A DNA stretch of 64,000 nt from Gammaproteobacteria bacterium (GCA_965116795.1 OZ220716.1:1258503-1322502); one strand, 5' to 3'. Numbered from the stretch's first letter, positions 39,171 through 40,690 are shown. Numbers and translations: made by a program. Notes: generated by a model not told the origin, from the sequence alone.

Positions 39171-39195
39171 TAGCGCTAAATATAGGCTAATTTGA

Positions 39196-39225
39196 CTGGC
39201 TATACCTTCGATAGTGAGCGTTAAT
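39196..39225 (+). promoter_or_regulatory. Cassette promoter-like motif A (CTKG-N16-GAGC)
   Basis: The same motif with identical spacing occurs at 39765 and 40326. Confidence 0.6.
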
Positions 39226-39260
39226 TACAACGTAACGTTAACTTAACTGGAGAAAAAATC

Positions 39261-39572
39261 ATGAGCACATTAATCGACAGACTGTTTTACAAACCCCTTA
39301 TTTGGGATGTGAAAAATACCCATTGCACTAAACAAGAAGAAAACGCATTGTTAGACATTTTTGAAAAAGCCATGCAACGCGCCGCACTCGTGCCTGCCAG
39401 TCAACTGCGCTTTGAATTGACGCACATTGCCCCTAAGCAAACAACATTGCACCCTTTTGTTCTAACGATGCACTTCGATAGGGTCTGCGGGCAAATGCAA
39501 TGGCGAGGGGTGTTTGAAAATGCAGATAACAGCAAATCACTGGAAGTGCTAGGCGCTTTAGAAAAAGAGTAA
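39261..39572 (+). CDS. Uncharacterised paralog A of a triplicated cassette
   Basis: SD GGAG; aligns along its length with 39826-40158 and 40391-40690. Confidence 0.85.
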   Translation: MSTLIDRLFYKPLIWDVKNTHCTKQEENALLDIFEKAMQRAALVPASQLRFELTHIAPKQTTLHPFVLTMHFDRVCGQMQWRGVFENADNSKSLEVLGALEKE

Positions 39573-39589
39573 CCCACCCTTTACACCCA

Positions 39590-39627
39590 GCCACAGGCGC
39601 CAACGTTTGGTGTCTGTGGCCTTTTTT
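39590..39627 (+). terminator. Intrinsic terminator after paralog A
   Basis: GCCACAGGCGCCA/TGGTGTCTGTGGC stem followed by a T run. Confidence 0.8.
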
Positions 39628-39764
39628 CAGGGCGCAACGTCTTTACCCCTATCTTTTCAATTAGCATGACAGCGCCCAAATTTATTTGTTATTCGACAAA
39701 ATTTCTCATCAGTAAACACTGCATCGATTAATAGCAAAAATAGTGGCTATTTAGCGAAATATAA

Positions 39765-39795
39765 CTTGCTATAACCTGCAGATAGAGCGATTAAT
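39765..39795 (+). promoter_or_regulatory. Cassette promoter-like motif B
   Basis: CTTG-N16-GAGCGATTAAT. Confidence 0.6.
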
Positions 39796-39825
39796 GTAAC
39801 TGTTAAAACAAAACTGGAGATTAAC

Positions 39826-40158
39826 ATGAAAACAGAAATTAACAACGAATATCACACCGAATATTACAAAAAATATTACACTAACATTGTGGACAATGAA
39901 GGCTTGACGATTGCTGAAGTTAACGCCGCATTAGAAGCTTTCGAAAAAGCGTTAGATATTGCCTTTCAAAATTCAGAAGATGCGCTGGGCTTTGATTTGA
40001 AAGGCTTTACGCCGCAATGCGCGCACATTGAAAATTTTGATTTTTCGATAGAGCGACAAATTGTTGACGGACAAATTCAGTATTGGGGAATTTTCACCGG
40101 CGAAGATGACAAAGCCTTTTACCTTCAGGGCTGGATAAGAAACAACAACAACGATTAG
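39826..40158 (+). CDS. Uncharacterised paralog B
   Basis: SD GGAG; FEKAL...FDL...P...F......VDGQIQY.GIF pattern shared with A and C. Confidence 0.85.
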   Translation: MKTEINNEYHTEYYKKYYTNIVDNEGLTIAEVNAALEAFEKALDIAFQNSEDALGFDLKGFTPQCAHIENFDFSIERQIVDGQIQYWGIFTGEDDKAFYLQGWIRNNNND

Positions 40159-40171
40159 CTCTCCAGGCTTT

Positions 40172-40211
40172 GGCTGCACACGCCCAACGTTGGTATGTGC
40201 GGCCTTTTTTT
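40172..40211 (+). terminator. Intrinsic terminator after paralog B
   Basis: GGCTGCACA...TGTGCGGCC stem followed by T7; shares CCAACGTT with terminator A. Confidence 0.8.
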
Positions 40212-40325
40212 ATGTGCGTGCCGCACTAACCCCACCTATTTTTTTCTCCACAAACGCCACTGTGTTGGCTGTGTTAAATAACCAAACCATCAGTTAATAC
40301 TGCTGCAATTAATAGCATTTTTTCG

Positions 40326-40355
40326 CTGGATATAGTGCCACACCCGAGCATTACT
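40326..40355 (+). promoter_or_regulatory. Cassette promoter-like motif C
   Basis: CTGG-N16-GAGCATTACT. Confidence 0.55.
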
Positions 40356-40390
40356 TATCACACCTTGAAAATTAAAGAAGGATTATCACC

Positions 40391-40690
40391 ATGTCAACCG
40401 ATGTTGAAAATCGCACGCCAGTTATATTCTACGTGCACAACACCCGTTGCAATGATGACGAGCTGCGACTCTTGCTAACCAACTTTGAAATGACACTGCA
40501 ATATGCGGCTAATTTTACAAACACGGTATTCAGGTTTGACTTCAAGTATTCAATGCCATCACACAGCCTATTATATCCGTTTAATTTAACCATGAAACGT
40601 CATCGCGTTGATAGTGCTTTGCAATGGCATGGCACGTTTAAACATTGTAGTGGCTTGAAGCAATTGCAGGTTATGGGAATTTTATTATGA
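40391..40690 (+). CDS. Uncharacterised paralog C
   Basis: V.NT.C...E..LL..FE...Q.AA...RF...P...L.PF.LTM...RV...QW.G.F shared with A; stop overlaps the lysozyme start. Confidence 0.85.
   Translation: MSTDVENRTPVIFYVHNTRCNDDELRLLLTNFEMTLQYAANFTNTVFRFDFKYSMPSHSLLYPFNLTMKRHRVDSALQWHGTFKHCSGLKQLQVMGILL

Follow-up and report, generated by a model that had tools for sequence, protein, structure and literature searches.

The stretch of DNA considered here, referred to as the window, comprises 64,000 nucleotides (GCA_965116795.1, OZ220716.1:1258503-1322502) of a gammaproteobacterial genome of 2.45 Mb in one contig (G000), and includes the complete late region of a lambda-like prophage. Past the tail genes, the gene order is DUF6127, a holin-like gene, three small ORFs, and lysozyme. 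The three small ORFs, each with its surrounding elements, are treated below as cassettes A, B, and C; the features of this lysis module are as follows.

38401..38700, + strand: DUF6127 gene, first of the lysis module (Pfam PF19622, E 1.8e-15)
38721..39170, + strand: holin-like membrane protein gene (phrog_6637, E 1e-33; 19-residue hydropathy 2.29)
39196..39224, + strand: promoter-like core of cassette A (CTGGCTAT ... AGCGTTAA); the upstream palindrome is missing in this copy
39261..39572, + strand: cassette gene of type A, 103 aa (6 copies in the genome, dN/dS 0.18)
39590..39627, + strand: intrinsic-terminator-like hairpin and T run 3' of A (-25.7 kcal/mol, z -4.2 versus shuffles)
39707..39793, + strand: promoter block of cassette B (palindrome CAGT-N4-ACTG at 39709-39722; rearranged core at 39765-39793)
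39826..40158, + strand: cassette gene of type B, 110 aa, acidic, pI 4.1 (genome-wide, 5 whole copies plus 1 fragment)
40172..40211, + strand: terminator-like hairpin and T run 3' of B (-19.9 kcal/mol, z -2.1; homologous to the A hairpin)
40288..40355, + strand: promoter block of cassette C (palindrome match at 40290-40303; core at 40326-40355)
40391..40690, + strand: cassette gene of type C, 99 aa, basic, pI 9.4 (10 genomic copies, of which one has an internal stop)
40687..41133, + strand: phage lysozyme (endolysin) gene (Pfam PF00959, E 5.9e-38; phrog_7)

An earlier note on this DNA had described the three ORFs as an array of diverged paralogues. Their start codons do lie at 39261, 39826, and 40391 (565 and 565 bp apart), with products of 103, 110, and 99 aa; BLASTP confirms the paralogy (A/C 38%, E 5e-21; A/B 32%, E 2e-10; B/C 26%, E 6e-8), and the residue pattern read across the three proteins holds. 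The related hairpins with T runs reported behind A (39590-39627) and B (40172-40211) are both present; that of B is not called by a simple terminator scan and was found as a repeat homologous to the A hairpin. The spacer element (CATCAGT..ACTGC..ATTAATAGCA) recurs at 39707 and 40288 as described, and the claimed coupling of C to the lysozyme is visible as an ATGA overlap between the C stop and the lysozyme start, the type C gene having no terminator. The array is also correctly placed between holin and endolysin, but the holin matches only phrog_6637, a family of unknown function; the label is based on the hydrophobic stretch of the protein and on its position next to the lysozyme in relatives.

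The source genome contains 14 related lysozyme genes and 16 sites with the lysis module or the cassette family. Twenty-nine family matches at 13 sibling-prophage sites fall into six types, A to F, in arrays of one to four members. Type A has six copies, type B five plus a fragment, type C ten (one with a stop), type D three, type E two plus one that is frameshifted, and type F one. The layouts are ABC (four times), DABC, DEF, DE, AC, B-fragment plus C, C alone (three times), and a lone E remnant; three further sites have no cassettes, and one of these bears a deletion scar. A contig from another study spans an ABC array with 253 differences, so the array is not an assembly artefact. The types are 14-45% identical to each other, and the tree gives no clear order for their duplications. 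The prophages, closely related, are dense in G000:C1:1066000-1545000 and 2064000-2258000 (12 terminase and 14 lysozyme matches), where many are interrupted by IS elements, and two distant members of the cluster lie elsewhere, at 95000-124000 and 339000-367500. The holin-like gene occurs as two alleles that are about 70% identical (window 38721-39170 versus L017:567-1031).

The exact 565-bp pitch, to which the earlier note had attached meaning, does not survive comparison of the copies. Only two of the five ABC-containing arrays have 565/565 spacing, the others having 564/568, 565/569, and 568/569. Pairs D-A, D-E, and E-F are spaced at 541-552 bp; overall, 14 of 15 adjacent cassette pairs fall between 541 and 569 bp, and the remaining pair is at 669 bp where B has been deleted. 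The basic cassette unit is about 545 bp. Cassette B has about 19-20 extra nucleotides between promoter core and ATG and seven extra codons inside the ORF, and these two B-specific additions of about 20 nt each account for the near-equal A-B and B-C pitch. That the pitch itself is functional, through fixed-length units, site-specific cassette insertion, or a DNA-level ruler, is thus largely refuted and hardly conceivable: the A-B and B-C pitches differ by only 0-4 nt in all five ABC-containing arrays, but these are close relatives and not independent, exact equality is found in two of the five, other pairs are shorter, and the two additions in B suffice. The equal pitch is descent plus coincidence, and its exactness is incidental.

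A promoter-like block is conserved before all six cassette types. The palindrome CAGT-N4-ACTG precedes 24 of the 27 whole cassette genes in the genome; the three exceptions are A copies behind one holin allele, including the copy in the window, and the three arrays whose first cassette has no palindrome all follow the holin allele of the window. Downstream of the palindrome lies a core (CTGGCTAT ... GAGCGTTAAT) that starts about 65 nt before the ATG. Within the 2.45-Mb genome the combination of palindrome and core occurs only at cassettes; the palindrome alone was dropped as a regulon marker, with 179 scattered matches and no regulon. A 30-nt repeat lies 5' of B and C. Of the claim that each gene has the same upstream motif, the part on the promoter-like core stands, but in the window A has no palindrome ahead of it and the core of B is rearranged.

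This motif is non-canonical. A sigma-70 consensus scan returned five sites versus 7.9 expected, and the predicted -10 region of the cassette blocks does not have the usual sigma-70 A at -11. LexA-box, sigma-54, and RpoS readings of the motif were considered by eye against the consensus sequences and dropped. The A and D promoter blocks are 93% identical, versus 55% for their ORFs (shuffled baseline 50%), and diverge directly after GAGCGTTAAT; near-identity that ends right behind the core points to exchange within the blocks. Several breakpoints of gene gain or loss also lie in the blocks, as where A stands directly behind the holin-like gene with a D-type block, or where DABC, ABC, and C layouts are compared. 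Some scars break elsewhere, namely the loss of B in AC and a loss of D that leaves its hairpin. At four loci a half palindrome is fused to a D-type hairpin with no ORF between, which reads as a putative deletion scar. The earlier view of independently expressed units in a cassette array is supported at the level of sequence by a separate promoter-like block for each gene, hairpins after A and B, and the gain and loss of cassettes.

Related hairpins follow A, B, D, and one of the two E copies (z -2.1 to -5.4), and folding against shuffled sequences found no terminator hairpin after C or F. All 11 close sibling loci that have both the holin-like gene and the lysozyme, the cassette-free one among them, carry a terminator-like hairpin between the two. 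With a hairpin upstream, the lysozyme would be read from the promoter of the last cassette or by read-through, and the proposal that the array rewires endolysin expression is plausible. A lysozyme in the cytoplasm would be harmless without a holin.

The gap between the holin-like gene and the lysozyme is a cargo hotspot. Among the cassette-free siblings, two distant ones have other cargo there: in L024 a 397-aa protein (2608-3801, - strand), and in L025 proteins of 236 and 651 aa encoded on the opposite strand (1202-3881, - strand), all without a Pfam or PADLOC match. In sibling L023 the gap is 140 nt. L281 has a 157-aa gene in this position (485-955) that by eye resembles an HNH homing endonuclease, and L090, L111, and L137 have gaps of similar size to that of L281. 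In the window, an excisionase-like HTH_17 gene (41284-41670, - strand) faces the lysozyme and by tblastn follows only two sibling lysozymes, and a tail gene with RCC1 repeats (32836-34500) is kept in sibling prophages. Just past the prophage end, positions 42681-50089 encode a 2344-aa protein whose matches are to Sel1, weakly to ankyrin, and to LRR-like repeats; upstream of it, and overlapping it in a different frame, is a 151-aa ORF of WD40-like repeats. Related copies stand behind several of the sibling lysozymes, and the protein looks like cargo for association with eukaryotes. Farther on are a second recombinase with a DUF2924-like module (57400-60800), probably the left end of the next prophage, and an ORF that by eye resembles a reverse transcriptase (near 63150-63974).

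The cassette proteins are under purifying selection. Within types dN/dS is 0.06-0.18, compared with 0.14 for the lysozyme (summed pairwise counts over related copies), and no positive selection is seen in this analysis of the types; the suggestion that the proteins are still diversifying is not upheld, the six types being old and each of them conserved. A glycine is the sole invariant residue across the family, which leaves no conserved catalytic set, and pI spans 4.1 to 9.4; both features would fit a binding scaffold with different partners. The maximum 19-residue hydropathy is 0.3-1.2, with no stretch of transmembrane length, and no membrane, lipoprotein, or signal segment was found. The AlphaFold model of C is a strand-helix-strand followed by a three-strand meander (pLDDT 92.5).

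The earlier note had recognized no family, and for A, B, and C none is matched at curated level in Pfam, PHROG, or NCBIfam, known lysis accessory families included. Types A to F and a homologue outside the genome, X (see below), have no credible match in Pfam, PHROGs, NCBIfam, or PADLOC, the PADLOC scan having taken in 14 members; weak matches to ANIS5 (E 0.037), PD-Lambda-4_A (E 0.003, one of the 14 members), and phrog_22592 (E 0.1) were rejected, as was, as chance, a crAssphage match (E 0.01) inside a far longer ORF. The ESM Atlas gave no usable match for A or X, the PDB sequence search no match, and Foldseek against PDB and BFVD no match at E 0.001. Searches also returned no match to an HTH or other DNA-binding family and no eukaryote-like domain. 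The best VIA matches have Z 6.2 and 5.7 and none reaches Z 8, which does not by itself prove a new fold. Among the listed PDB-sequence, Foldseek, and VIA matches there is no likeness to a solved member of the anti-defence families Acr, Ocr/Ard, Arn, IPI, Tad, or Acb. The best fold neighbour is the pseudopilin GspI, with a helix over a beta-meander (2ret_A, Z 6.2, rmsd 2.9, 73 aligned; Z 5.7); however, Z is below 8, identity is 1-6%, and the cassette proteins have an extra N-terminal strand, and the likeness is probably only one of common arrangement. Mimicry of pilins, of the kind described for P-FimU and P-PilA (PMC12952977, in excerpt), was rejected on the models, in both of which the N-terminus is a strand and there is no hydrophobic N-terminal helix. 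A literature search, largely of open-access text without supplements, found no description of the protein family or of the array.

The family extends beyond this genome, and the reach given here is a lower bound. Word-based searches with the proteins of the window recover only copies in G000 or close strains and one outside D-type protein. HMM searches find homologues in 3 of 399 scored genomes of the class and 3 of 400 of the phylum; the match in G031 is a remnant, those in G105 and G166 are whole genes, and from these the homologue X was reached. X is a conserved 96-aa protein encoded in single copy at each locus (363 clusters). Against type A it scores E 5e-8, and the elements of its model are those seen in C, although the X alignment included eight rows from G000. 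The X loci (82 of 83 usable, L096 being dropped as a weak partial match) lie mostly in betaproteobacterial prophages where the record names the genome, with free-living Thauera, Nitrosomonas, and Comamonas among the hosts; X is present across many genera at identities mostly of 70-90%. No gene separates the holin-like gene from the lysozyme in AcaML1, MW202825, and 34 of 37 related loci. In G419 and G466 the homologues occupy a pre-terminase cluster of small genes beside a methylase and DUF3489/DUF6900, with no lysis gene in the stretches covered, which indicates a mobile accessory gene that is not specific to lysis.

X is preceded by a promoter-like motif of its own, CTTGGCTT-N10-CAGCGCGTTCATG, at 75 of 81 loci. 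When a matrix trained on this motif is applied to the 27 genes of G000, the site that it selects is the cassette core for 24 of them, at modest scores; only two of these picks exceed the 99th percentile of random windows. Eighty-two distinct genes stand behind the motif, among them 15 X, 15 DUF6900, 12 DUF3489, and one DUF2924 (counted in viral contigs for 80 of 140 or more matches). In the viral contigs L141-L220 a stretch of 1.2 kb can hold up to four copies of the form CTTGGCTT-N10-CAGMGCGTTCATG, which precedes DUF6900, DUF3489, DUF2924, and about a dozen unnamed small families; the DUF2924 genes of G000 keep only the 5' half of the motif. The motif tags an entire group of unknown small prophage genes, DUF6900, DUF3489, and DUF2924 among them, and could serve in mining for more.

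In 73 of 76 loci with enough downstream DNA, X ends less than 150 bp from a convergent gene for a 313-aa protein. This protein has a PD...E-x-K motif and is presumably HrgA/COG2958; Pfam, NCBIfam, PADLOC, PDB sequences, and the literature search gave it no name. By its visible motif and presumed name it appears nuclease-like. At many loci its gene is the last in an operon that also carries type I restriction or SMODS-SLATT (CBASS-type) genes (prophage-borne examples are L058:5300-6238, - strand; L031:1677-2627, - strand; and L297:1390-2466, + strand), making it a candidate defence gene in its own right. The remnant in G031 keeps the nuclease-like neighbour, beside a phage repressor.

Co-folding of X with this neighbour scored 0.47, against 0.00 for the best of three controls, with at least 88% of contacts agreeing between runs and a partner pLDDT of at least 76. 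Of 157 solved pairs 116 passed the mark set, as did 2 of 215 mismatched pairs; passes at 0.60 or below comprise 18 of the solved pairs and both mismatches. The predicted complex lends the pairing weak support; a pass this weak is more often wrong than right, and it was obtained for X and not for A, B, or C. Co-evolution was not counted, since the identities of X and its neighbour correlate only weakly (Spearman 0.37 over ten non-independent loci). Searches for the nuclease-like gene found none in G000, none in G419 or G466, both of which carry homologues of the cassette genes, and none within the 700 bp covered at six more divergent X loci, and the same-genus genome G001 (90% complete) has the gene without any member of the family. 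The absences from the three genomes and the case of G001 show that the pairing is not obligatory; it may be positional, a matter of two operons meeting at the prophage end.

The architecture has precedents. Morons lie inserted between otherwise adjacent genes, have their own promoter and terminator, and are independently transcribed, typically in the lysogen. Excerpted accounts describe them as small non-core genes with their own promoter in a late operon (PMC10884400, PMC6469090). Like morons such as Tab of Pseudomonas phage JBD26 (PMC10884400, in part), the cassettes separate two genes that stand side by side in related phages, and they have their own promoter-like sequence; hairpins are present only in part. 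They differ in forming up to four tandem paralogues, the last without a terminator and coupled to the lysozyme, and the searches here matched their proteins to no known moron product by sequence or fold. In the PeSLs of T4-type phages, repeated terminator-promoter blocks of about 70-100 bp surround small genes, and recombination between PeSLs would delete or swap genes (PMC2839356, PMC4122927, both in part). The cassettes share with them the repeated terminator-promoter blocks and the breakpoints of gain and loss within blocks; however, they belong to a temperate phage and lie in its lysis module behind a non-canonical promoter with a palindrome, their genes are paralogous, and the strong sigma-70 early promoter and T4-type genome that characterize PeSLs are not features of the cassettes. 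Among the contigs listed no back-joint of an excised mini-circle of the PeSL kind appears, which says nothing against such circles. The cassettes would work like PeSL cassettes yet are not PeSLs.

On plasmids, the anti-restriction genes termed ard offer a third case. In the CUP regulon of IncN plasmids (ardB, ardK), excerpts describe repeated operator-promoter blocks before small genes in the same orientation, rearranged by recombination between repeats (PMC5371602). Unlike the CUP repeats, the cassettes are in a phage; there is no sequence likeness between the two, and no regulator gene was identified with the cassettes. APSE shares with the prophage considered here a variable cargo around holin and lysozyme and a probably host-associated gammaproteobacterial host (PMC8579659, in part), but the APSE cargo consists of eukaryote-directed toxins, whereas no toxin family is matched by the cassette proteins, homologues of which occur in free-living bacteria. 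The cassettes appear to represent an undescribed protein family within an architecture known from morons, PeSLs, and CUP repeats.

The reading preferred here is a variable array of paralogous moron cassettes in the lysis module, whose small soluble proteins would act in counter-defence; taken whole it is tentative, a little short of an even chance. Its two parts differ in strength. That the architecture is a recombining moron array is highly probable. Each cassette gene would be transcribed separately from its own predicted promoter, recombination between the common promoter blocks would shuffle, add, and remove cassettes, and the lysozyme would be read from the C promoter or through the hairpin. 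Counter-defence is the weakest step, possible but somewhat more doubtful than not: the proteins would inhibit nuclease-type defence proteins by binding them, the target would likely differ from type to type, and the array would with similar tentativeness be a set of inhibitors that have diverged. On indirect evidence this agrees with the anti-defence or antidote role proposed in the earlier note. It is consistent with the view that phage accessory genes for the most part likely antagonize defences or other viruses (bioRxiv 10.1101/2023.04.06.535777). A bolder form, in which the undescribed family inhibits a prophage-borne nuclease-type defence protein and the array holds six antidote specificities exchanged among siblings, with the lysozyme behind a separate promoter, is rather unlikely as stated.

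Siblings do compete in a host with 14 related lysozyme-bearing prophage modules, and the cassette proteins might instead be exclusion or defence factors against them, each type blocking one variant of a phage protein. Tab, an 83-residue moron product expressed from its own promoter in the late operon between terminase genes (PMC10884400, in part), is the model for such a role, and the pre-terminase site of the homologues in G419 and G466 recalls it. No anti-factor gene is evident beside the cassettes, however; the one PADLOC match among 14 members (E 0.003) is not credible, and the high conservation of X (mostly 70-90%) is unlike a factor chasing variable phage targets. Exclusion of siblings is an unlikely role for these proteins.

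The conservation of X across many genera is what a conserved host target would give, and the cassettes belong to a set of small genes behind one promoter-like motif; the proteins could on these grounds modulate host physiology or transcription, as factors of host takeover or lysogen fitness whose targets are conserved host proteins or DNA and not defence enzymes. The weak fold neighbours number longin-like domains among them, and also YfjZ (Z 5.0, rmsd 2.6, 69 aligned), which we take to be a CbeA-type antitoxin, but matches with Z below 8 are uninformative. The lack of a match to HTH or other DNA-binding families counts against this role, which leaves six oppositely charged types side by side unexplained and seems quite unlikely.

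Proximity to lysozyme is the case for lysis accessories that bind or time the lysozyme or the holin: all nine intact C genes overlap the lysozyme start, and of 76 X loci, 61 have a lysozyme at most 1.7 kb upstream and 39 have it as the immediate neighbour. Such a role is nonetheless improbable, given the homologues near terminase in G419 and G466, the three sibling lysis modules without the family, the absence of membrane or signal segments, and the separate promoter-like motif of X. Effectors aimed at a eukaryotic host, like the endosymbiont-phage cargo near lysis genes, are very improbable: neighbouring cargo with Sel1, ankyrin-like, and LRR-like repeats, the variable toxin-holin-lysozyme module of APSE phages (PMC8579659, in part), and the other cargo in the same gap of two divergent siblings are set against homologues common in prophages of free-living bacteria and proteins without a eukaryote-like domain.

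For the wider family, the tentative counter-defence reading makes a testable pair of a widespread, unnamed 96-aa phage protein and its nuclease-like neighbour, which could be a new defence/counter-defence couple. Within this one genome, 16 sibling sites and six conserved types show an accessory gene growing into a shuffling array of paralogues.
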